From IMG/VR virus record IMGVR_UViG_2541047905_000018: a stretch of DNA of 36,344 nt. One strand, written 5' to 3'. Of the stretch, positions 4,257-34,575 are shown in pieces (positions within the stretch are counted from its first letter, which is position 1; each line of letters starts with the position of its first letter). The notes under the pieces are model-generated. The model did not search any database. It was not told the DNA's origin and was given only the letters and a program-made list of their open reading frames with translations. The position numbers and the translations under genes were made by a program. Origin of the DNA: a virus (taxonomy: Duplodnaviria; Heunggongvirae; Uroviricota; Caudoviricetes).

Positions 4257-7200
4257 TCAGCTAATCGTGATGCCTGCAGTGGCTTTCTTCATCACAACAA
4301 CCAGCAAATCGCTGATACTTGCTGTGGGATACCAGCCATTTACCCACCATGCTGATACAGAAAACTCCAGCGTCATGTCGCCGCGACCAGCAGGCATATT
4401 AATAACACCACTGTAAACCAGCGTATTATCCAGCGCGGTACGGTTATAAATTTCAGCACCGTTTTTCTTCACTATCAGGCGGCATGACGAATAAGTATCG
4501 CTGTTCTCCTGCTCATGTCTGGCACCGCTGAAAGCCACCGCCGGAATAACAATCTGCCGGTTAAACGGCTGATCGTCATAAACCCTGACGGTAATGGTTC
4601 CTGATGGCCAACGCTTCGGTGCACGGGAGTCACGAGGGAAAGCCTTACCCACTGTTTTAACGAGATCGCCTTCAATCTGGTTTGCAGACAGTTTCCCTCT
4701 GATGACACAGTTCTCGTTAATGGTGACATTATTGAGCGTGCCGGTATTCGCCGTGATGGCTCCACTGATATCCGCATTGCGGGCTGTCAGCCTGCCATCC
4801 GGCGTCAGGGAAAACGTCGGAGGATTGCCGGATGACGTGATGCTCACCGCAAACAGTCGCTTCAGGAACACGTCGTTCATGAACAGCTGATTCCCCTGCG
4901 CCACAAATAACGGCGTGGTGTTACCGTTCTCCGGGGTAATCATCGCAATGCGATCGGCCTGCAGCAGAATGTTACTCAGCGTCTGACCATCAACATCCTC
5001 AATCCCCGCGCCAATCCCGGCCACATAGGGAATACCGTTTTTTGTTTTCTGCACCTTCAGCATATACATGGCATTCAGCTCATTGCGCGTGTCTGACTGA
5101 ACCCGCTGGATTTGCTGTATGGTCACGGCCTGGTCACCCAGCTTTTTATCCGTGGTCGAGGTAATTTCACTCCCTTTTTTATCCACGTACTGGCGGACCT
5201 GTGCTATCTGTCGGGCGTTTTCTGACTGCCCCTGGCTGACAGTCTGTGAGATTTCACTGCTCACCCGGTCCACTTTCTGGCTCACCTGCGCGATGGCCAG
5301 TGTCTGGTCCTCATTCTTTTTCGCAACCAGCTGCGTGAGGCTGTTTTCCGCCTTCCCGATTTTCCGGGTCACTTCTGCGATATCCGTGTCCATCCGCTGA
5401 CGGATATCTTCTTCCAGTTGCGTGACCTCCGTACGCAGCGCTGAAGCATCAATGCGCTCTTTCAGTGCCTGACCCAGAAGCGTCTCATCTATCAGCCCCC
5501 GGAAAATTTCCAGATACCCTTCACCATCATTGCTGGGCTGCCCGCTGGCTTCCACAAAAGCAGATTTTCCCACCAGGTTGACGCTTCGCACGTAAAACCA
5601 GAAATCCGTCCCCGGCTTAATCCGGCTCCCCTGGACAGTCCACTGACTGCCGGTCCCCAGATAACGGGCAGATTTTTCCACCTGTGCTGTGTTCGTGATG
5701 CGTTTTTCTGAGAACCAGAATTCAAACTGTACCGTCGGGTCATACACCGCAAGACGCGGGACCGCCGTTATCTGAAAATACCCCGGCGTCAGCTCAATGG
5801 TGGCGGGTTTTGCAGGTGCGTTAATCCGGAACGATACCGACGCCGGATCGCCCTGCTGTCCCCGGGCATTTACCGCCCGGACCGTCAGCGTGTAACGCCC
5901 CAGCGGCAGGCCGCTGAAACGGTGCTCCGTGTCTGCGGTGATGGCGGTGGTCACCAGTCTGGCATCCGTTCCCTTACCACTGGTCAGGCGCAGACTGAAG
6001 CGCACGCCCTTCACCACCTTCGGCGTGTCCCAGCGCGCCAGCACCTGATATTCCCCGCTGTCTGCGGTGACTTCGGCGGTCAGGTGCTGCACCGCTGGCG
6101 GCGTGACACCATTCACCGTGCCGCTCTGGTCGCCGTCAAAGTGCGCCCCGTTATCCACGATGGCCTCTTTTGCCGGTACATGCTGCACGGCGGTGATGGC
6201 ATACGTACCGTCGTCATTCTCACGGATATTCACACAGCGGAACAGGCGCTGGCGCAGCGTCGGCAGCTTCAGCCCCCACACGCTGTATTCAGCAACACCG
6301 TCAGGAACACGGCTCACTTTTACCTTCACGCCGTCGGTGACGGACTGAACCTCCACGCTGACCGGATTGCCACTTCCGTCAACCAGGCTTATCAGCGTGG
6401 TACCGGAGGATGGCAGCGTGATTTCACGGTCGAGCGTCAGTGTCCGCGTCTGGCTGTTCACCGCCAGCACGCGCCCGCCGGTGCTGATACCCGCATAGTC
6501 ATCATCACAGATTTCAATAACATCGCCCGGTACATGGCGAAGCCCTTCTGCGCCCACGCTGAAGTCCACGGTCTGCGTTTCCAGCAGCTCCGTTTTAATC
6601 AGCCACAGCCCGGCGCGGTGTGCCTGCCCCCGGCTGGTACAGCCAAAGGCATCCATCTTCGTGACGTTACGACCGTAACGGGCAATGGCCTGCGTATCTT
6701 CAACAAGCTCTGTCGCCGTCTCCCAGCCGTTATCCGGGTCAATCCAGTTCACCTCAACGGCATTATGGCGGTCCTTCAGGGCGCTGAAGCTGTAGCGGAA
6801 CGGCGCGCCATCATCCGGCATCACCACATTACTGCGGTTATAGGTCCACACCTTATCTGATGGCCGGTCCTGCACGAACGTCAGCGTCTGCCCGTTCCAT
6901 ACCGGCATACAGCGCATCGCCGAGCAGAAATCACTGAGCACATCCCACGCCTTGCGCTGTGTGGTCAGGTACGCATTACAGGTGATGCGCGGCTCCGTGC
7001 CGCCAAAGCCGTCCGGCACTGACTGGTCGCAGTACTGGCCGATGACATACAGCGCCCATTTGTCCACATCCGCCGCACCAAGACGTTTCCCCATGCCGTA
7101 GCGTGGATGGGTCAGCATATCCCACAGACACCAGGCCATGTTATTGCTGTATGCTGGCTTAAACGTTCCGTCCCAGATACCGCTGTATTGCCGAGTCTGC

Positions 7201-22053: not shown

Positions 22054-22282
22054 AATCGGTTTTACCTATCAATCATTTAATCACATTCCAAAAAAAAGTT
22101 TTCGAACCTGCGGCGATGCGAGGAAAGGTCAGGCGGCGGTACTGAGCAGCCTGGGTTGCAGAGATTTGATCCCCCCCCTCCCCCTTGAAGATGGCGGCAA
22201 AAAGCAGATACTGGCCACCCATCAGGATGCTCAGCATGGTGTATTCAGTTAATCTCAATAAATAAAAGATGGAGTCTAAGAA

Positions 22283-22798
22283 ATGGATAAAACCAGAAAA
22301 TATGACAGAGCCTTACAACTTGAAATCCTCAATGCCCTTATAGATTGCGCGCCTAACTCTTTAAACAAGGCACAGGAGCGAGACCTCATTGAGAAGTTTG
22401 ACAGTTACGATCACTTTGTGGCGTGCATGTTATACCTTGAAATGCATGGTCTCGTTTCCACCCCCTTCATACGCAGTGACACCATGGCTGGCGTTGAGTT
22501 TATCTTCTGTGCCCCTAACTGCTACATTACAGAAAAAGGAATTGATTTTCTTCTCGATGATGGCGGCTTAAGTGCGATCCTTAAAGTTCAGACCTTTCGG
22601 TTACACAGTGACACGATTGTTGCCCTTGAGGATATAATCCGTGTCGCAAATATATCTGAAGATCAGAAGAAGGGATTGATTTCAAAACTCCGAGAGCTTC
22701 CGGGAGACGCCATAAAACATTTGACCCTACAGTTACTGACTCAGGGGGTTCTGAATCTGCCGAACGCACTTCGACTAATTCAAACAACCCTCCAGTAG
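22283..22798 (+). CDS. unknown 171-aa protein, winged-helix-like N-terminal half (copy A1 of a duplicated module)
   Basis: Paralogue of the ORF at 33611-34114 (shared blocks YLE.HGL, IT..GIDF..DDGGL.AIL, LR.LP.DAIK.LT..LL.QG...LP....IQ..L). It lies opposite to the late operon. GGAG sits 8 nt upstream of the ATG. Confidence 0.7.
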   Translation: MDKTRKYDRALQLEILNALIDCAPNSLNKAQERDLIEKFDSYDHFVACMLYLEMHGLVSTPFIRSDTMAGVEFIFCAPNCYITEKGIDFLLDDGGLSAILKVQTFRLHSDTIVALEDIIRVANISEDQKKGLISKLRELPGDAIKHLTLQLLTQGVLNLPNALRLIQTTLQ

Positions 22799-22937
22799 GG
22801 CTAAACTCATCTGAGGGGCGAATTAACTCAAATTTGCCCCATCCCAGTTTTTCACTTAAAACAACCCAAAATCCCTCCCGGGTATCTGCATGAATATAGA
22901 AACTATTTTTATGCATTACAGCAGTGAATATTATCAT
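22581..22937 (-). CDS. unknown small protein (copy B1 of a duplicated module), translationally coupled to HNH
   Basis: Its ATG at 22937 overlaps the HNH stop (ATGA). The first ~77 aa are paralogous to the ORF at 33478-33771 (FW..LS...GWG.F.LIRP..EF...GGLFEL.E.R.AD...P..V..S.VLWR). Its 3' 218 nt overlap A1 on the opposite strand, and the true stop is uncertain. Confidence 0.55.
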   Translation of the reverse strand: MIIFTAVMHKNSFYIHADTREGFWVVLSEKLGWGKFELIRPSDEFSPTGGLFELVEVRSADSEPPESVTVGSNVLWRLPEALGVLKSIPSSDLQIYLRHGLYPQGQQSCHCVTERSEL

Positions 22938-23284
22938 CGAATACGTTCCCTTGCTGTCTTCTCTCTGTGGCATTCCCTGCATAACGACTCAAGATTGGAG
23001 TCATCATCGGTGCCGCCATGAGCTTTTGGAATCATGTGGTCTACAGTCCTGGCCTCAACGGCTCGTCCATTGCGCAGACAGTTCTTACACAGATGGTTAT
23101 CACGCTTCAGTATACGCGCACGTATAACATCCCATTTCGAGCCATAGCCACGCTGGTGGCGACTCAGTCCGCGTTGATGCTGTACCCATCCTTCACCACG
23201 ATGTTTATCGCAGTAACCAGAACTGTCTGTGGTTGTACCTGCGCATCCACGCTTACGGCAGGCACGTGGGATTCGTGATGGCAT
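22934..23284 (-). CDS. HNH endonuclease (terminase-associated)
   Basis: 116 aa with ...VDHMIPKAHGGTDDDSNLESLCRECHREKT... and Cys-rich flanks. HNH enzymes are the usual partner of HK97/P27-type terminases. Confidence 0.9.
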   Translation of the reverse strand: MPSRIPRACRKRGCAGTTTDSSGYCDKHRGEGWVQHQRGLSRHQRGYGSKWDVIRARILKRDNHLCKNCLRNGRAVEARTVDHMIPKAHGGTDDDSNLESLCRECHREKTARERIR

Positions 23285-25101: not shown

Positions 25102-25107
25102 GCATGT

Positions 25108-25137
25108 AAAAAGGCCCCAACACATGTGCGTGGGGCC
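25108..25137 (-). terminator. rho-independent terminator closing the 230-nt ORF-less unit downstream of the tRNAs
   Basis: The minus strand reads GGCCCCA-cgcacatgtgt-TGGGGCC followed by T5. Confidence 0.6.
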
Positions 25138-25167
25138 TGAGAGTATACATGGTTTCAGTCAACTGCA

Positions 25168-25189
25168 TGGTGCCGGGTGCCTCCCGGTG
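25168..25189 (-). repeat. 22-nt element CACCGGGAGGCACCCGGCACCA (copy 1, sense in the late transcript)
   Basis: Exact 22/22 match to 34354-34375 on the plus strand. It contains a CCGGG-aggca-CCCGG hairpin and tandem GGCACC. Confidence 0.8.
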
Positions 25190-25337
25190 AATTCAGTACC
25201 AGCACCTGAATCCGCGATTATCCCATATACCTACTCGCTGATTGCCCATCCGCACAGGGGGATTCACCATGCCAGTTTCTTTTAACAAACTCCCCGCAAA
25301 ACAGACAACTGTCAACCGTCTGAATTGTGAGACATTT

Positions 25338-25377: not shown

Positions 25378-25454
25378 TGGCGCGTTGTACTGGATTCGAA
25401 CCAGTGACCGATTGCTTAGAAGGCAATTGCTCTGTCCGGTTGAGCTAACAACGC
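25378..25454 (-). tRNA. tRNA-Arg (anticodon UCU)
   Basis: I folded the cloverleaf by hand: acceptor GCGTTGT/ACAACGC, D arm GCTC..GAGC, anticodon arm ATTGC-CTTCTAA-GCAAT, T arm ACTGG-TTCGAAT-CCAGT, CCA encoded. Confidence 0.9.
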
Positions 25455-25467
25455 AGGGTACAGATAA

Positions 25468-25544
25468 TGGACCGCCATCGAGGACTCGAACCCCGCGCAA
25501 CCAGCTTCGAAGGCTGGTGCTCTATCCTGATGAGCTAATGGCGG
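25468..25544 (-). tRNA. tRNA-Arg (anticodon UCG)
   Basis: Cloverleaf: acceptor CCGCCAT/ATGGCGG, anticodon arm CCAGC-CTTCGAA-GCTGG, T arm CGGGG-TTCGAGT-CCTCG, CCA encoded. Confidence 0.85.
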
Positions 25545-25551
25545 TATGTGA

Positions 25552-25627
25552 TGGTGGCCCTTGCTGGATTTGAACCAGCGACCTGGCGATTATGAGTCGC
25601 TCGCTCTCACCACTGAGCTAAAGGGCC
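25552..25627 (-). tRNA. tRNA with CAU anticodon (Met, or Ile2 if lysidine-modified; the ileZ-like position of Stx phages)
   Basis: Cloverleaf: acceptor GGCCCTT/AAGGGCC, anticodon arm GCGA-CTCATAA-TCGC, T arm GCTGG-TTCAAAT-CCAGC, CCA encoded. Confidence 0.85.
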
Positions 25628-29557: not shown

Positions 29558-30499
29558 TCACCCCCTGAATCCTTCCGGGATCTGGCTGTAGTCCACGTTG
29601 TCGTAACTGGCTTTGAAGTACGGGTCCTCACGTTTTTCTGTGTGCGTGCTGACGGACGGCGATAAGCGCAGGGAAAGCTCATCCCATTTTTCCCGCAACT
29701 TCGACGGGCTGAGCACGTTACGGCACCAGAACGGATCACGGCTGACGCGGCTGTACATCTCGCAGATTTGTTTGTGAGTACGACCATCCTGCACACACAT
29801 CAGGCGAATTTCGTTTGCCCATGCTGTCCAGTTCGGTTCTTTGGGACGAACCACCTCGCCGTCACATTCGGCGGCCTGCTCGTACAGGGCGATGATTTTT
29901 TTCCAGAGCCACTGTGCGCAGGTCAAATCATCCTGCGTTCCCCACTGGCGCTTTTTAGGGCTGAATACAACCGCATCAGGATGGCGAGTTAAAAAATCCT
30001 GTTCAGCCGTCTGCGTGTCCGGTTGCAAAGCGTCCGGACGAGAAGGTTTTTTATCTGACGGATCATGTTTTGATTTTACTGACGGATCCCCGCCAGATTC
30101 TGACGGGTGAAAACACGCTTTTTTGCCAGATTTCGACGCATCAAATTTTGACGGGTCAGATTTTGATGCGTCAGATTTTGACGGGTCAGAATCTGACAGT
30201 TGAGAAAATGCCGCAGCCTGAAGCTTCGCAACGTTAAGCTGATAAACATTCGACGCATTGCGGTTACCCTGGCGACGCGCCTTACGCGTTAACCAGCCTT
30301 CTGCTTCCAGCCGTGCGATAGCCGTTCTGACGGTACTCATCCCCGCGCCAATCTGGCGGGCAATGGTTTCAATTGATGGCCAGCACACACCCTCGTCATT
30401 ACTGAAATCAGCCAGACGGGCCATAATTGCCACACTGGATAATTTCATGCCTGACGCTGCGCAACCATCCCATACATAGCCGGTTAATTTGGTGCTCAC
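29558..30499 (-). CDS. replication initiator (HTH N-terminal domain, iterons inside the gene)
   Basis: 313 aa with an N-terminal wHTH (VCWPSIETIARQIGAGMSTVRTAIARLEAEGWL). The central PSKSD/ASKSD repeats are encoded by the iterons. Position is equivalent to lambda O. Confidence 0.8.
   Translation of the reverse strand: MSTKLTGYVWDGCAASGMKLSSVAIMARLADFSNDEGVCWPSIETIARQIGAGMSTVRTAIARLEAEGWLTRKARRQGNRNASNVYQLNVAKLQAAAFSQLSDSDPSKSDASKSDPSKFDASKSGKKACFHPSESGGDPSVKSKHDPSDKKPSRPDALQPDTQTAEQDFLTRHPDAVVFSPKKRQWGTQDDLTCAQWLWKKIIALYEQAAECDGEVVRPKEPNWTAWANEIRLMCVQDGRTHKQICEMYSRVSRDPFWCRNVLSPSKLREKWDELSLRLSPSVSTHTEKREDPYFKASYDNVDYSQIPEGFRG
30064..30200. repeat. origin-like iteron array (15-bp repeats, consensus TCAGATTTTGACGGG)
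   Basis: Five contiguous 15-mers at 30126-30200 (CCAGATTTCGACGCA, TCAAATTTTGACGGG, TCAGATTTTGATGCG, TCAGATTTTGACGGG, TCAGAATCTGACAGT). Degenerate copies lie near 30093 and 30071. Confidence 0.8.
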
Positions 30500-31053
30500 T
30501 TACGCACCTCCTTATGCTTTTCGTTCAGTTCCGAGTCCACCAGCCCGGCAACGAATACACCATCGTTGATGTAGTCGTAGAGCGATGAAGCCAGCGGAGA
30601 CTGAACTGAAACCAGCATCGGATAAAGTTGTTCTAACCAAACGCGGTGAATTTCAGCCATGTAGAGGTAAACAACGTGGGCATTGTGCGCGACACATGAA
30701 GTATCAACCTTTCCGATCAGCGCCTGTTCCATCTGGTTAAAGGCATTGATGTATGCCTCTTTGAACTGGGCAGCACGTTTACCCGTGAAACCCATAGCAA
30801 GAAACGCAAAGCCATCGCGGGTTATTTGATAGCAAGGTAGTTTGCGAGTACCGCCGTTGGGCTGGCGTACCAAAATTGATGTCTCCGCAAAATTGCGGGC
30901 ACAAAACTCTGGAGAACAATCCAAAATGCGAATCTTTTTCAGAACATCGTCATGACGTTTAGAGAAGAAGTCAGCAACAGCCAAAGAAGATGTAACAGCC
31001 TGACCATCAACGATGGCAATTTCAGGTTGAGAGAGGGTTGGGAGAGTAGTCAT
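30496..31053 (-). CDS. Rha-family phage regulatory protein
   Basis: From the ATG at 31053: MTTLPTLSQPEIAIVDGQAVTSSLAVADFFSKRHDDVLKKIRIL..., a typical Rha domain. The supplied ORF extends to 31353, but that extension contains terminator hairpins (see the leader feature at 31054-31330). Confidence 0.7.
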   Translation of the reverse strand: MTTLPTLSQPEIAIVDGQAVTSSLAVADFFSKRHDDVLKKIRILDCSPEFCARNFAETSILVRQPNGGTRKLPCYQITRDGFAFLAMGFTGKRAAQFKEAYINAFNQMEQALIGKVDTSCVAHNAHVVYLYMAEIHRVWLEQLYPMLVSVQSPLASSLYDYINDGVFVAGLVDSELNEKHKEVRK

Positions 31054-31330
31054 AGTGACAGCCCCGGTAGTCAGTTTTTTAGAAAACTCACCACATGGGA
31101 CGCCAATCACAGAGGTGGTGAGACGTACAGGGTTGGCGTTACCGGAGACTACCGAACCCGGCCCGACCGAAGTCGGCCCTGTACGCCCCACCATAATTTG
31201 GGCGTAGCAATGCTCATGACACGAAAAAACCGCATGAGCGCGGTTATGCTCAGTAATCAATTTCAGGACGCCAATCCCGGCAACGGATTTTGCCGCTGCC
31301 AGAACAATATAACGCCCAGAATTATCAGAA
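31054..31330 (-). promoter_or_regulatory. highly structured leader with intrinsic terminators upstream of rha and the replication gene (tR1-like region)
   Basis: On the minus strand: AACCGC-gctcat-GCGGTT followed by T6 (31224-31245); TACGCCC...GGGCGTA; a 9-bp stem CGTACAGGG/CCCTGTACG enclosing CCGAC-UUCG-GUCGG; and CTCACCAC...GTGGTGAG followed by TTTTCT (31081-31122). Confidence 0.55.
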
Positions 31331-31522
31331 TCAATCATTACTGGTTTGCTCATGATCGTCCCTTATCTCCCTGAACTTTTGCCTGAAATGCTCAAGCGGG
31401 CTGAAGCATTCATGTTCATAGCCTTCACGGAGGTAGATAACCCGTTGTGTTTCCGGCTCCCAACGAATGACTCTGACGGGCACTCCGTAGTGATCTTTGA
31501 ACCAGCGGTTAACTTGTCGCAA
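31331..31522 (-). CDS. DUF4222-like small protein
   Basis: ...[44 protein letters not shown] fits my recollection of DUF4222. The likely start is the TTG at 31522, with AAGGAG 8 nt upstream. The supplied ORF begins at a GTG at 31564. Confidence 0.5.
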
Positions 31523-31701: not shown

Positions 31702-32339
31702 GCGTTAGTTTCTCCACAACCAGAAGCAATCGACGCCACGACGCCCGGAGCTGCACACTCGCGGGCGTTACTCTTTTCCGGCGCACAAAAAACACGAAAT
31801 AACAGTGTTAAATGCTCCTGCCACTTCGCCATTACTTGGTAGCTGTTCTCTTCGATTTGCTCACGCTCAGCTTGGTCAATAACTCCATCAGCAGTTGCCT
31901 TGCGTAAGTACTGGGAATGCTTGCCAATCCATTCTATTGACTCCATCAGCCGCTGATTAATGTCACCATTGTCAATGTCATCAATGACCACCAGCGGCAC
32001 AAACACCCCATTACTACGACGGGCTATTGCATCCGTTACATGCCTGGTACCACTGGCATCCTGTAAAACCATGGCCCACTCAAGTGGAAAAATTTGATCC
32101 CCACCGCTACGCAGTCTGTTATGCAATTGATCTTTTGCTGGGGTGATATCATCAGATTTATACAAACCAAGAATTTCTGCTGCTTCCTCATAGCCATGAG
32201 GTAAATCAGCAATCGTTCTTCGTATTGCTGCCACCAGCCATGCTGGTTGCTTATCAACTTTCCATTCAGGTTCTTTACCCACGTTTAAGCCCTCATATCT
32301 GTGGTTTCTGTAAATCGATTTATCCATTAGATTTTTCAT
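31698..32339 (-). CDS. CII-like (CP76-type) regulatory protein, in the YdaT/CII position
   Basis: It directly follows the Cro-like gene. Its general pattern (..YEEAAEILG.....L.NRL.....[14 protein letters not shown]..) resembles the phage regulatory CII (CP76) family as I remember it. The start is uncertain (32339 or 32327). Confidence 0.45.
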
Positions 32340-32520
32340 AAAGCTCAGGTTTAAATGGCAACCGTCCGCAAGTTCTATATGCAGCCTCTGCTGCACGTCC
32401 TTTTGGAATTAACTGGCCAGGACGGTTTCGCCACTGATAAACGGCTTCAGTTGTTATGCCGAAAAAAGCAGCAACTTTCTCAATGCTGCCGAAGTAGCTT
32501 TCGATATCGTCAGTCGTCAT
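32320..32520 (-). CDS. Cro-like repressor of the DicC/P22-Cro type
   Basis: 66 aa. ..YFGSIEKVAAFFGITTEAVYQWRNRPGQLIPKGRAAE.. parallels DicC (YFGSKTKLAQAAGIRLASLYSWKGDLVPEGRAMR). GGAGGG is the SD. It is divergent from the CI gene. Confidence 0.8.
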   Translation of the reverse strand: MTTDDIESYFGSIEKVAAFFGITTEAVYQWRNRPGQLIPKGRAAEAAYRTCGRLPFKPELYEKSNG

Positions 32521-32531
32521 ATGCCCTCCAA

Positions 32532-32617: not shown

Positions 32618-33244
32618 ATGGAAACGGTTGGTCAGCGTATAAAAGCTCTGAGAAGAGTTACCAGAACGTCCCAGAAAGAATTGGGTAAATTTTGTGGAGT
32701 AAGTGACGTTGCTGTGGGGTACTGGGAGAAAGACATCAATGTCCCTGGTGGGGAAGCACTTTCAAAATTAGCGAAGTTCTTCAATACGTCAATAGATTAC
32801 ATTCTTTATGGTGCGGAGTTTGAAGGCAAACTCGTCACAAACATGCGCAGAGTTCCTGTAATCTCGTGGGTTCAGGCTGGGCAGTTTACTGAGTGCAGGA
32901 CAGCAGAAGTGTTTAGTGAAGTAGACAAGTGGGTAGATACATCATTAAAGATTGGTGATAACTCATTTGCATTGGAGGTTAAAGGCGACTCCATGACTAA
33001 CCCTAACGGCCTCCCAACAATACCAGAAGGCGCAACAGTGATTGTAGATCCTGATGCAGAACCCCGGCATGGAAAAATAGTCATCGCTAGACTTGATGGA
33101 ACAAACGAAGCCACAGTAAAAAAATTAGTTATCGATGGCCCTCAAAAGTTTTTAGTGCCATTAAATCCCCGGTACCCCAACATCCCGATCAATGGTAATT
33201 GCCTCATCATTGGTGTAGTCAAAGGAGTTCAATACGAACTCTAG
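32618..33244 (+). CDS. cI: CI-type repressor (XRE HTH plus S24 LexA-like peptidase domain)
   Basis: 208 aa. N-terminal HTH (QKELGKFCGVSDVAVGYWEKD) and C-terminal S24 domain (VKGDSMTNP...ATVKKL Ser/Lys dyad). Confidence 0.9.
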   Translation: METVGQRIKALRRVTRTSQKELGKFCGVSDVAVGYWEKDINVPGGEALSKLAKFFNTSIDYILYGAEFEGKLVTNMRRVPVISWVQAGQFTECRTAEVFSEVDKWVDTSLKIGDNSFALEVKGDSMTNPNGLPTIPEGATVIVDPDAEPRHGKIVIARLDGTNEATVKKLVIDGPQKFLVPLNPRYPNIPINGNCLIIGVVKGVQYEL

Positions 33245-33266
33245 CCCCCCTTTTCTCTAACCAAAA

Positions 33267-33299
33267 CACCGAACTAAGAAAAGTTTGGTGTTTTCTCTT
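33267..33299 (+). terminator. rho-independent terminator after cI
   Basis: CACCGAAC-taagaaaa-GTTTGGTG (one G-U pair) followed by TTTTCTCTT. Confidence 0.5.
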
Positions 33300-33326
33300 G
33301 CCATCAAAACTAAGTTAAGTTAGATT
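33298..33326 (+). promoter_or_regulatory. candidate pL (TTGCCA-17 nt-TAGATT) with an OL-like operator in the spacer
   Basis: The operator-like ACTAAGTTAAGTTAGA at 33309-33324 lies between the -35 and -10 elements. It shares its half-site with the OR sites. Confidence 0.55.
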
Positions 33327-33409
33327 TTATATCAAAGATAACGAACAGGCAGGACGCCCACGAAGTAGCCGCCCGGGGCATATGAAGTCCAGGATGATTC
33401 GTTAGCAAC

Positions 33410-33432
33410 AAAAAAGCGCCCTACAGGACGCT
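33410..33432 (-). terminator. minus-strand terminator beyond the 5' end of the 97-aa gene (would end the A2 transcript)
   Basis: The minus strand reads AGCGTCC-tgtag-GGCGCT (one bulged base) followed by T6. Confidence 0.5.
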
Positions 33433-33477
33433 TAGCTCTTTAACAATCTTGGTATCCCCGTAACAAAAGAGGGTTCT

Positions 33478-33771
33478 ATGGTCATATTCTGTGCTTACGT
33501 TCATCCTAATGGATTTTTTATCAGCACCAACCAACAAGACGAATTCTGGATTCTACTTAGTAAGCAGGTCGGATGGGGACGATTCTGTCTAATCCGACCA
33601 GAATCAGAATTTACAGAGAATGGAGGGCTTTTTGAATTACGTGAAATACGTCCGGCAGATGGTCAAGCCCCTGACCAAGTAATCGAATCGTCAGCTGTTT
33701 TATGGCGTCGGCAGGAAGCGTTCGAAGCTGAGAGAGTAATTTCTTCTTATCTTCAGTCGTGGCAGAAGTAG
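33478..33771 (+). CDS. unknown 97-aa protein (copy B2 of the duplicated module), first ORF after pL
   Basis: GAGGG SD 5 nt upstream. Paralogue of 22581-22937. Differences between the copies in the non-overlapped part fall mainly at third codon positions. Confidence 0.65.
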   Translation: MVIFCAYVHPNGFFISTNQQDEFWILLSKQVGWGRFCLIRPESEFTENGGLFELREIRPADGQAPDQVIESSAVLWRRQEAFEAERVISSYLQSWQK

Positions 33772-34114
33772 AACTATTGATGATACGTTCAAGTTCACAG
33801 AGAGTCTCATCATGCAATCTTATTGTCATAATCCCAAGAATAGCTTTAAGACCTCCATCATCACGAATGAAATCAATTCCATCTTTAGTAATTCTTAATT
33901 CAGGAATATTTATATTTATGCCATCCAAGTAATAATCAAGAGCATTCTTAATCAAGCCATGTTCTTCGAGATAAATTAAGTTCGAAATTAGGACATTATC
34001 ATCTCCAAATGCGTCACGAACAGACTGCAACGCATCATCAGAAATTTCATAAGGATGAGCATCATACAGTATTTGTAACAACTGCCTTTGTGCACTTCTA
34101 TCAAATTTGTCCAT
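33611..34114 (-). CDS. unknown 167-aa protein, winged-helix-like N-terminal half (copy A2 of the duplicated module)
   Basis: Paralogue of 22283-22798. It is convergent with B2 and overlaps it by 161 nt. A candidate promoter TTGATA-16 nt-GATTAT ends 5 nt before the ATG, so the mRNA may be leaderless. Confidence 0.7.
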   Translation of the reverse strand: MDKFDRSAQRQLLQILYDAHPYEISDDALQSVRDAFGDDNVLISNLIYLEEHGLIKNALDYYLDGININIPELRITKDGIDFIRDDGGLKAILGIMTIRLHDETLCELERIINSSTSATTEDKKKLLSQLRTLPADAIKQLTIRLLGQGLDHLPDVFHVIQKALHSL

Positions 34115-34353
34115 CTTAAATAATCACCATGTTATTGGGGGTATCAAGATTAACCGAATCCTTGTTGTTGGGGAATAACCAGGTCCACCTCGCCTGATGT
34201 GGCTAAAAGCAGGCACATAACAGCTAAGTATTTTCAACCAGAGAGAATCCTTAGCGTTGTGGTGAATGCGGCTCAGCGCACGCGGGTTAAGGTTGAGGCT
34301 GACAGTCGACCTTCTGTGGATACCCACCCGCCTGGTGTGCAACCTTCGCCAGG

Positions 34354-34375
34354 CACCGGGAGGCACCCGGCACCA
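34354..34375 (+). repeat. 22-nt element CACCGGGAGGCACCCGGCACCA (copy 2, sense in the pL transcript)
   Basis: Exact reverse-complement match to 25168-25189. It lies about 15 nt upstream of the DicF-like sequence. Confidence 0.8.
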
Positions 34376-34438
34376 CAACAGCCACTGCTTTGGCGGTACC
34401 AGTTTGTACACTTGCTTCCGGCTGGTACCGCTCTTTTT
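34375..34438 (+). ncRNA. dicF: DicF-like small RNA with its own terminator
   Basis: TTTGGCGGTACCAGTTTGTAC matches the K-12 DicF core TTTGGCGGTATCAGTTTTAC at 18 of 20 positions. It ends in GCGGTACCAG...CTGGTACCGC followed by TCTTTTT. The synteny (repressor, pL, small ORFs, dicF) matches the Qin dicB operon. The 5' end is not determinable from sequence. Confidence 0.65.
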
Positions 34439-34527
34439 ACAAAACAGAGAAGAGCATCACCGGACGACGGGCTCATAACCCAATCCATCCGGGCGGCTGC
34501 CACCGCAGGTGTTCTTCTCTGTTTTGT
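34439..34527 (+). repeat. long inverted repeat (15-bp perfect stem ACAAAACAGAGAAGA / TCTTCTCTGTTTTGT) directly after the DicF-like terminator
   Basis: Read directly from the sequence. The arms enclose about 59 nt containing further GC hairpins. It is a candidate RNase III processing stem, which is inference. Confidence 0.6.
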
Positions 34528-34575
34528 GGAGAAACCAACCGACCTTGCAGGGTCGATATGATGAGGAGCAGCAAA

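Follow-up and report, generated by a model that had tools for sequence, protein, structure and literature searches.

We found that B2, a 97-aa open reading frame in an E. coli prophage, is a real protein-coding gene of a previously unannotated family, and that it shares its last 161 nt with the convergent gene A2, this stretch coding for protein on both strands. The window, that is the whole stretch of DNA analysed, comprises 36,344 nt (IMG/VR record IMGVR_UViG_2541047905_000018), and the two genes face each other there beside the repressor. To our knowledge, few long antisense overlaps of protein-coding genes are well supported in bacteria and their phages, and A/B is a good test case for overlap evolution because clean comparative evidence is available and two paralogues lie in one prophage.

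Layout and control signals of the pair

The features of the repressor-proximal locus are as follows.

32618–33244, plus strand: cI-type repressor with Peptidase_S24 and HTH_3 domains (context)
33298–33326, plus strand: pL-like promoter, TTGCCA-17-TAGATT, from a promoter scan
33307–33325, within the span of the pL-like promoter: OL-like operator, the 19-mer AAACTAAGTTNNNTTAGAT
33408–33433, minus strand: intrinsic terminator of the A2 strand, hairpin 33433–33414 followed by U6
33467–33473, plus strand: Shine-Dalgarno sequence of B2, AAGAGGG, 4–5 nt before the ATG, read directly from the sequence
33478–33771, plus strand: B2, 97 aa, first ORF after pL, candidate counter-defence/self-immunity protein
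33611–33771, both strands: dual-coding overlap, 161 nt
33611–34114, minus strand: A2, 167 aa, PHROG 3983, candidate lysogen-expressed defence protein
34120–34158, minus strand: candidate A2 promoter region, a TTGATA-16-GATTAT match plus motif TTCGGTTAATCT, consensus match only

The first-pass annotation had placed the pair directly after the cI terminator and a pL/OL-like site, and this placement holds, as do the coordinates given there for A2, B2 and their overlap. The terminator hairpin of the repressor gene at about 33263–33295 folds with −15.6 kcal/mol (z −4.8, RNA folding), the pL-like promoter follows it, and the 19-mer AAACTAAGTTNNNTTAGAT is matched a second time in the window in the cI–cro operator region at 32530 and nowhere else (chance expectation 0.01). 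B2 does have the good Shine-Dalgarno sequence attributed to it. The minus-strand terminator that had been proposed beyond the B2 start was also found, 45 nt beyond the start codon; it folds with −11.5 kcal/mol on the minus strand, whereas the plus-strand version reaches −7.5 kcal/mol with one mismatch and lacks a U tract, and on these grounds we regard it as a one-way terminator for the A2 strand. Since it lies past the B2 start, the predicted A2 transcript would run antisense to the complete B2 gene together with its ribosome-binding site. Terminators on the A strand occur 16–55 nt beyond the B start in about 10 other, independent lineages.

At the other end, a leaderless A2 mRNA from the candidate promoter TTGATA-16-GATTAT had been suggested. 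The promoter scan does give this match upstream of A2 (34147–34120, minus strand), but such matches near A2 are at chance frequency (4 found versus 4.1 expected in shuffled sequence), and the A2 ATG is preceded, at a distance of 10 nt, by an SD-like GGTG that aligns with a GGAG of the paralogue described below. The leaderless reading is therefore doubtful, and we do not retain it. The motif TTCGGTTAATCT at 34158–34147 (minus strand) is common to the upstream regions of A2 and its paralogue A'.

A2 consists of an acidic winged-helix domain (residues 1–85) and a helical C-terminal domain, and the winged-helix flavour noticed in its N-terminal half is borne out by a fold similar to MarR, PadR and YjcQ. 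Both A2 and A' match the PHROG 3983 profile over its full length (E 2.6e-59 and 1e-56), a family without assigned function. Against winged-helix DNA-binding families no family-level Pfam match was obtained, the best being YjcQ with E 0.18, below the cut-off. The winged-helix domain (87 residues, net charge −10) has a pI of 4.25, the family median being 5.4; these values do not fit a basic DNA-binding surface, and this strong acidity means that a DNA-binding regulator cannot be assumed. The A family comprises 1131 clusters at 50% identity and has no Pfam model. Its profile, run against 1.84 billion proteins, returned only stand-alone proteins of about 165 aa, with no domain fusions hinting at function, and a literature search for WP_000357060 found nothing.

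Gene B and the dual-coding overlap

The diverged second copy that had been noted at 22283–22937 is present in the late operon of the same prophage.

22283–22798, plus strand: A', 171 aa, paralogue of A2, antisense in the late operon between the HNH gene and terS
22581–22937, minus strand: B', 118 aa, paralogue of B2, overlapping A' by 218 nt
22934–23284, minus strand: late-operon gene for an HNH endonuclease, with translational coupling to B' (context)

A' is 39% identical to A2 and B' is 48% identical to B2 over 90 aa, and one prophage thus carries two diverged cognate A/B pairs. The HNH gene ends within the start of B', stop codon and ATG sharing the sequence ATGA. B' is annotated neither by PGAP nor in PhiR49_2; B2 is likewise not annotated by PGAP, and the B family is absent from the RefSeq annotation of E. 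coli prophages, an annotation gap concerning a family with relatives across Gamma- and Betaproteobacteria.

B2 is a soluble, acidic, beta-rich protein predicted to form five beta strands and a C-terminal helix (AlphaFold2 pLDDT 85.5), a fold without a known match. The first-pass annotation recognised no family for it and had named membership of the two proteins in well-characterised families with an unrelated housekeeping role in phages as a point against its reading; searches of A2, B2, A' and B' against Pfam, NCBIfam and PADLOC gave no significant match (best E with the PADLOC-DB 2.0 profiles 0.013, not significant), and PDB sequence searches with the A and B family profiles found nothing.

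Co-occurrence of the two genes was examined in a biased sample, namely the best 80 of 452 viral matches and 23 genomic matches, in which B is convergent to A in 89 of the 104 homologous loci, with A identity going down to about 35%. Absence or frame disruption of B in most homologous loci had likewise been named as a point against, and this is not the case: the B ORF is intact, at 94–118 aa, in 67 of the 68 non-redundant pairs, with an overlap of 152–218 nt. Over the last 150 nt of A, the 68 loci together contain 3 stops in the B frame, the two remaining antisense frames having 233 and 172, and the B frame over the first 300 nt of A contains 442. When codons were resampled with the A protein fixed, the median probability that the B frame stays open was 0.001. 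The non-overlapping part of B shows a dN/dS of about 0.10 and a coding-type profile of.061/.052/.259 at positions 1/2/3, the pairwise statistics on A/B, here and below, treating related sequences as independent. Between the B paralogues, the 44 N-terminal residues encoded outside A are 48% identical (E 1e-18).

That B is not a functional protein, its open frame and conservation being by-products of A coding constraints or of an RNA element, is strongly disfavoured and in our view highly improbable: the gene was left unannotated by PGAP and by the depositors of phage records, and B conservation inside the overlap is confounded by A conservation, but its first 44–47 codons lie outside A and show the low dN/dS and the paralogue identity just given, among the antisense frames only that of B avoids stops, resampled codons so seldom keep that frame open, the fold is predicted confidently, and B' is ATGA-coupled to the HNH gene.

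The overlap encodes the C-terminal helices of A2 on the minus strand, and strand 5 and the C-terminal helix of B2 on the plus strand. Position 1 of A codons lies opposite position 1 of B codons, and position 3 of A opposite position 2 of B. The dS of A drops about 5-fold, from 0.58 outside the overlap to 0.12 within it, and its dN stays the same. Diverged homologues retain both ORFs in intact form, and purifying selection in both frames goes together with synonymous suppression, as antisense dual coding requires.

Genomic contexts and spread

B lies in lytic operons in the settings examined: after pL in the window, ATGA-coupled to the HNH gene in the late operon, behind Cox in a Salmonella prophage, and behind cro-position genes in Paraburkholderia, a metagenomic phage and Pseudomonas phage P54. 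The nearest ORFs on both sides are on the strand of B in 46 of the 68 loci, and A is the lone opposite-strand gene in the operon. In Acinetobacter phage AbIPP1, A is the gene immediately after cI; in Edwardsiella phage GF-2 it comes immediately after an Arc/Mnt-like repressor and next to Arc-Ant. These gene contexts fit a scheme in which the lysogen makes A, and B appears once the lytic promoter is active. The B gene of AbIPP1 runs opposite to the presumed direction of pL, which makes a lytic-operon position of B less certain in that phage.

In Gamma- and Betaproteobacteria alike, and in five genomic contexts, the two genes stay linked in the same frame relation, and no conserved operator accompanying the cassette across these contexts was found. 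Gilliamella and a metagenomic phage have B together with a truncated A, and A-only loci exist as well, A being widespread without B. Among 5426 complete genomes, the pL-type cassette is present in 76 and the late-type in 28. Late-type A genes are preceded by an inverted repeat, CTG-N9-CAG, which was considered as a LexA box and dropped, being one base short of CTG-N10-CAG. At the pL-type position, the slot between cI and yfdP has conserved flanks and alternating convergent cargo, with SfV and Kati carrying other convergent pairs.

Possible functions of A and B

As A and B match nothing in PADLOC, Pfam or NCBIfam and are not homologous to Tab/anti-Tab or Tai/Ati, function was assigned from architecture alone. 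We give about an even chance to the reading, made by analogy, that A is a defence protein expressed in the lysogen and B a counter-defence protein of the lytic cycle. A2/B2 and A'/B' each form a self-contained cassette of temperate phages, about 0.8 kb long, in which the last 150–220 nt of both genes are predicted to be translated on both strands. From the layout we infer the timing of expression, the defence activity, A–B binding and interference at the RNA level as follows. A, probably produced in the lysogen, would have a promoter of its own that drives transcription opposite to the lytic operon; the A transcript, ending past the B start, would be antisense to the whole B message, and B would be made only when the lytic operon fires. 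A may act as a prophage defence or superinfection-exclusion protein, and B would neutralise it, probably by binding, allowing the prophage to complete its own lytic cycle, while convergent transcription and an RNA duplex could make the A and B messages mutually exclusive. Loci having B with a truncated A, or A without B, would be expected of an anti-defence gene and a defence gene.

This exclusion or defence reading is suggested by precedents of the same architecture that have been tested experimentally, namely Tab/anti-Tab, Tai/Ati, TERi and Fc02. The architecture of A/B matches the first three in that a lone opposite-strand defence candidate lies in a lytic operon with its partner in the operon direction. 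In Pseudomonas phage JBD26 the order is terS, anti-tab and, facing them, tab (PMC10884400), and in its record (JN811560) the 3' ends of tab and anti-tab overlap by 47 nt. Like the counter-defence candidate of the late A/B pairs, anti-tab stands in the late operon with a 1–4 nt overlap with the upstream late gene; as in A/B generally, the defence gene (for A/B, the candidate A) converges on it on the other strand, under a promoter of its own that is only predicted for A, and the 3' ends overlap; and, as with A'/B', the pair lies beside the terminase genes. Tab and anti-Tab are only 83 aa each, however, the A/B overlap is 3–4 times longer and conserved as dual coding, and the A/B cassette, unlike Tab/anti-Tab, is also found in early operons. 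Homology of A/B to the JBD26 proteins gp31 and gp30 was rejected (hhalign probability 0.2% each).

Tai/Ati of phi80 are arranged as a non-contiguous operon; binding occurs between each Ati and its cognate Tai, and late transcription lowers Tai levels (PMC11364771). Like the defence candidate A, Tai is encoded by a lone opposite-strand gene that interrupts the lytic operon before the packaging module, and Ati, like the counter-defence candidate B, by a small adjacent gene in the operon direction; phi80 orf63 and orf64 are nevertheless head-to-head with a 20-nt overlap of their 5' ends, whereas A and B are tail-to-tail, and homology to the two was rejected (hhalign probability 0.3% and 0.1%). 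In TERi (TerI/anti-TerI) of Listeria phage phi10403S, the defence ORF is encoded opposite the early lytic module, where it shares sequence with an ORF of the lytic strand, with different cargo genes alternating behind its own conserved promoter (bioRxiv 10.1101/2025.02.27.640495). We set TERi beside A/B by layout, and its alternating cargo resembles the cI–yfdP slot of SfV and Kati; TerI has 65 aa, and the gene it overlaps is not the immunity gene, unlike what is proposed for A/B. Fc02 has antisense-overlapping protein genes, olg1/olg2 versus gene 10, in its lysis-lysogeny region, one strand being transcribed in lysogeny and the other, the second gene after cro/ner, in lytic growth, and products of both strands exclude phages (PMC9936078). 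The overlap in Fc02 is complete, while that of A/B is limited to the 3' ends. A tblastn search with A gave no match in beetreviruses (B3-like Pseudomonas phages including Fc02), and homology to the Fc02 genes was dropped.

An exclusion or abortive-infection gene near the repressor and pL, with the determinant of self-escape in the same DNA, is also seen in P22 SieB/Esc with the sas antisense RNA and in BstA/aba. The escape determinants there are an in-frame internal product (Esc), an RNA (sas) and a DNA element (aba); the escape candidate of A/B, by contrast, is a separate protein from the opposite strand. If A is a defence protein countered by B, the pair would be a widespread, non-homologous addition to the emerging class of prophage defence/self-immunity modules, B would be a new counter-defence protein, and the cI-proximal slot of SfV-like phages would be a swap site for such pairs.

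The first-pass annotation listed a toxin-antitoxin-like pair among its options, and this fits poorly. B would then be a toxic or host-takeover early protein that the A protein and/or its antisense 3' UTR silences or neutralises in the lysogen. Type I toxin-antitoxin systems of the par/fst type typically have convergent transcripts that overlap at their 3' ends, and the layout here resembles them; moreover, the predicted A transcript covers the B ribosome-binding site and ORF, and B occupies immediate-early positions after cro and pL. We consider such control unlikely all the same, since B is kept in Gilliamella and the metagenomic phage with a truncated A, where an unopposed toxin would be lethal, A is common without B, in the late operon B comes last before the packaging genes, and a soluble, beta-rich protein of this size is not a small hydrophobic peptide. 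A par/fst-like type I system is further at odds with an antisense transcript encoding a conserved 167-aa protein, and a type II system with convergent genes that do not form a co-transcribed two-gene operon.

Two further readings seem to us rather improbable. One has A acting as a transcription factor of the winged-helix type, either a second repressor or a factor for maintenance, with B as its antirepressor, in an immI-like circuit tuning lysis and lysogeny. The MarR-, PadR- and YjcQ-like fold, the position of A behind cI in AbIPP1 and behind the Arc/Mnt-like gene next to Arc-Ant in GF-2, and the inverted repeat upstream of late-type A genes speak for it. The acidity of the winged-helix domain is, however, atypical of DNA-binding winged-helix-turn-helix proteins, the cassette occupies unrelated positions (pL, pR and the late operon) like a mobile accessory rather than being wired into one circuit, and no conserved operator travels with it. 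The other holds that A/B is a new defence/self-immunity system whose dual-coding overlap is itself functional. If the A and B segments encoded there are mutual contact surfaces, every mutation in them would alter both partners and the specificity of defence and counter-defence would be genetically locked; the same stretch would also work at the RNA level to switch between lysogenic and lytic states, and the C-terminal half of B would have been overprinted on an older A gene.

Somewhat less probable still is that A and B are two independent accessory genes, both real and unrelated in function, sharing space through an overlap that is a compaction or transcription-interference device. A-only and B-only loci would agree with this, as would the other convergent pairs that SfV and Kati carry in the same slot. 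Against it stand the linkage and frame relation kept across Gamma- and Betaproteobacteria in five contexts, and the presence of two co-diverged pairs in one prophage.

The convergent pair and its immunity region

The window is a lambdoid E. coli prophage of the SfV/HK97-like kind, in which the A2/B2 pair lies beside the repressor gene.

32320-32520, minus: cro-like gene, divergent from cI
32618-33244, plus: cI-type repressor gene with Peptidase_S24 and HTH_3 domains (domain scan)
33298-33326: pL-like promoter TTGCCA-17-TAGATT, following the cI hairpin (promoter scan)
33478-33771, plus: B2, 97 aa, the first ORF behind the pL-like promoter, with a good Shine-Dalgarno sequence
33611-34114, minus: A2, 167 aa, converging on B2

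The cI stop codon is followed by a strong hairpin and then a U tract (-15.6 kcal/mol, z -4.8 by folding). The 19-mer AAACTAAGTTNNNTTAGAT overlaps the pL-like promoter, and it recurs just once in the window, within the cI-cro operator region (chance expectation 0.01). Right behind pL, a 60-nt stretch (33345-33405) is near-identical in the window, SfV and Kati despite their differing downstream cargo, and could serve as a leader or as a nut/put-like element.

The first-pass annotation had described A2 and B2 as convergent genes sharing 161 nt of antisense 3' overlap, with B2 leading the pL transcript behind a good Shine-Dalgarno sequence, and our analysis of the sequence confirmed both points. 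It had also placed the only terminator on the A2 strand beyond the B2 start; we found this terminator, followed by U6, at 33433-33414, and it is one-directional because its plus-strand version contains a mismatch and has no U tract. Therefore, an A2 transcript would be antisense to the entire B2, including its ribosome-binding site. The proposed promoter of A2 fared less well. The TTGATA-16-GATTAT match is present before A2, but four such matches were found versus 4.1 expected in shuffled sequence, and a GGTG 10 nt before the A2 ATG aligns with the GGAG of A2's paralogue, making the suggested leaderless mRNA doubtful.

B as a protein-coding gene

PGAP annotates A2 alone of the pair (hypothetical protein WP_000357060.1), and B is absent from the depositors' annotation of phage records. 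Five lines of evidence, namely paralogues, co-occurrence, stop avoidance, substitution patterns and structure, show that B codes for protein. The diverged second copy noticed at 22283-22937 is indeed present and consists of two genes.

22283-22798, plus: A', paralogue of A2, 39% identical
22581-22937, minus: B', paralogue of B2, 48% identical over 90 aa

The N-terminal 44 residues of B2 and B', which are encoded outside A, are likewise 48% identical (E 1e-18). The late HNH endonuclease gene and B' overlap in an ATGA, made up of the HNH stop codon and the B' start codon, by its sequence a classic translational coupling.

We fetched 104 A-homologue loci from genomes and viral contigs, a selected sample, and B was found by tblastn in 89 of them, always convergent; this was the neighbourhood check suggested in the first-pass annotation. 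B also withstood the check for disrupted frames: its ORF is intact (94-118 aa) in 67 of the 68 non-redundant pairs, and in these 67 it starts 109-166 nt beyond the A stop and overlaps A by 152-218 nt. The sole disrupted B, at about 4300-4640 of locus L043, is frameshifted and split over two frames (HMM positions 1-26 and 22-99), possibly through a sequencing error or because it is a pseudogene.

Over the 68 loci, the B frame contains 3 stops within the final 150 nt of A versus 233 and 172 in the other two antisense frames, and the B-equivalent frame across the first 300 nt of A contains 442. When synonymous codons were redrawn according to the codon usage of the family, with each A protein fixed, the B frame remained open with a median probability of 0.001 (range 0-0.07). 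Pairwise statistics, which treat related sequences of this selected sample without phylogenetic correction, gave for close pairs (Nei-Gojobori) a dN/dS of 0.10 in B outside the overlap; A showed dS 0.58 and dN 0.036 outside the overlap, and dS 0.12 and dN 0.039 inside it.

Diversity at codon positions 1, 2 and 3 in pairs at least 80% identical
A outside overlap:.086,.043,.350
B outside overlap:.061,.052,.259
A inside overlap:.061,.043,.089

Since the third positions of A are the second positions of B, all three are constrained inside the overlap, as dual coding predicts.

An AlphaFold2 model of B2 from a 44-sequence alignment (pLDDT 85.5) consists of five beta strands and a helix at the C-terminus; the overlap encodes this helix and strand 5. 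Past the conserved VLWRxxEAxE motif, the tail is variable in length and sequence. A profile search gave 58 relatives of B, among which there was no functional name or Pfam domain; the few named are called 'hypothetical protein'. A2 and A' are members of PHROG 3983, a family without assigned function, and Pfam, NCBIfam and PADLOC scans of the two gave no match. The A family is large and uniform. At an E cut-off of 0.001 it comprises 1131 cluster representatives; among the matches listed, nearly all have ~150-175 aa, cover the profile from end to end and carry no extra domain. The winged-helix domain of A is strongly acidic (pI 4.25, net charge -10; family median pI 5.4), and A is at least as likely to bind protein as DNA.

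Genomic contexts and likeness to defence/self-immunity pairs

The location of the cassette differs between phages, and in nearly all of them B is co-directional with the lytic operon and A opposed to it.

Window, copy 1: pL, then B2
Window, copy 2, and PhiR49_2: lysis genes, HNH, B' (A' antisense), terS
Salmonella prophage: Cox, HTH gene, B
Paraburkholderia prophage: cro-position gene, B
Metagenomic phage: cro-position gene, B, starts overlapping
Pseudomonas phage YMC11/07/P54: cro-position gene, B

In a crude ORF census, the nearest ORFs on both sides were on B's strand in 46 of 68 loci; thus A stands against its neighbours, the pattern of a non-contiguous operon. A-strand terminators of unrelated sequence lie 16-55 nt beyond the B start in about ten lineages. 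A is directly behind an Arc/Mnt-like gene diverging from Arc-Ant in Edwardsiella phage GF-2, and directly behind cI, the position of lambda's rexAB, in Acinetobacter phage AbIPP1, where B still converges on A.

Each gene also occurs without a full partner. A stands without B in Xanthomonadales and other groups, including Rudaea (L021) and Dokdonella (L024), where a profile HMM detected no B; these two loci have a different convergent ORF (66-103 aa, mutually similar) overlapping the A 3' end by ~120 nt, possibly a highly diverged partner or an analogue. Conversely, in Gilliamella (L112, 5134-5445) and one metagenomic phage (L115, 5140-5316) B is intact and A is cut to its C-terminal 45-58 residues, the part antisense to B. 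This stump is either a decayed A held by the coding constraint of B or a functional mini-A.

In several recently published systems, a prophage defence gene is paired with a self-immunity gene on the other strand. JBD26 has terS, then anti-tab (coupled by 1 bp), facing tab with its own promoter, then terL, and its own growth requires Anti-Tab (PMC10884400); in its GenBank record, the 3' ends of gp30 and gp31 share 47 nt. In phi80, the Q-dependent late operon is interrupted by taiEcA, which the adjacent atiEcA counteracts, Tai being bound by its cognate Ati (PMC11364771). The terI of Listeria phi10403S, opposite to the early lytic module and overlapping a lytic ORF, has a conserved promoter with alternating cargo genes behind it (bioRxiv 10.1101/2025.02.27.640495). 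Fc02 carries antisense-overlapping genes, one strand read in lysogeny and the other in lytic growth, and products of both exclude phages (PMC9936078). Homology of A/B to Tab/anti-Tab and to Tai/Ati was rejected (hhalign probability below 1% for each), and no A/B was found in beetreviruses (B3-like Pseudomonas phages including Fc02). Therefore, the cassette has the architecture of the class and belongs to none of its families. By this analogy, we infer that A/B represents a new variant of the prophage defence/self-immunity architecture, one that is widespread and mostly missing from annotation; what sets it apart within the class is a conserved antisense dual-coding overlap of unusual length.

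Possible roles, the swap site and other elements

In a lysogen, A would be made from its own promoter, and its transcript, crossing B and ending just past the B start, would silence leaky B message. Upon induction or in an infecting phage, a lytic promoter would drive B; this transcription would also collide with that of A, the two RNAs being complementary over at least 161 nt, and B would neutralise A protein already present, sparing the phage from its own defence. Cognate specificity and a counter-defence role agree with the presence of two diverged pairs in one prophage and with the phages that keep only B. We give this model, drawn from anatomy and analogy, about an even chance, and the initial interpretation (prophage-state sensor, exclusion, toxin-antitoxin-like pair or interference switch) is supported in part. 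The foremost rival, a toxic early gene under toxin-antitoxin-like control, seems unlikely; a repressor/antirepressor switch is slightly less probable, and two unrelated accessory genes in shared space less probable again. A non-functional B is very improbable given the coding evidence.

The cI-yfdP slot holds other, unrelated convergent pairs within conserved flanks in Kati and SfV.

Kati (L002), 875-1487: plus-strand 68-aa and minus-strand 144-aa genes, 29-nt overlap
SfV (L003), 2091-2550: orf33 (plus, 98 aa) and an unannotated minus-strand 81-aa ORF, 83-nt overlap

All three phages share the terminator on the minus strand as well as the sequence upstream of the minus-strand gene, and the slot looks like a swap site for convergent cargo, alternating as in TERi. 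In the conserved flank (window ~34186-34203) there is a hairpin, CCACCTCGCCTGATGTGG; ~70-90 nt upstream of A in L097 and L105, its stem and flanks are the same and the loop is reverse-complemented, a pattern like that of template switching at a quasi-palindrome. An inverted repeat, ACTGxx...xxCAGT (CTG-N9-CAG), lies ~55 nt upstream of late-type A genes, those in the late operon (window ~22216-22232; L007, L008, L053, L086 and L089-L106), and is often preceded by the late-strand terminator GCCGCCATCGTGCGGCTTTTTT. The repeat could be an operator at the A promoter or a cos-related site; a LexA box was rejected, the repeat being one base short.

Between A2 and yfdP, a conserved GC-rich non-coding stretch of ~420 bp (34140-34560) is common to SfV and Kati. 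It matches the sRNA family STnc100 over the full length at a sub-threshold score (36 bits, E 8e-6; 34238-34440, plus), and a strong copy (133 bits) is in the late-operon leader (25102-25301, minus). Each copy comes shortly after a lytic promoter, and the phage has no evident N gene, so they may be put-like antitermination RNAs. Two further features are on the minus strand.

31111-31299, minus: adjoining C4 antisense RNA (82 bits) and isrK (69 bits), Rfam
25381-25627, minus: three tRNA genes, with the early/Q region on one side and the STnc100 element and lysis genes on the other

C4/isrK is upstream of or within a Rha/antirepressor-like ORF (30496-31353), an arrangement resembling the P1 c4-icd-ant and Gifsy isrK antirepressor control modules. 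The PhiR49_2 equivalents of the tRNA genes are annotated tRNA-Met, tRNA-Arg and tRNA-Arg.
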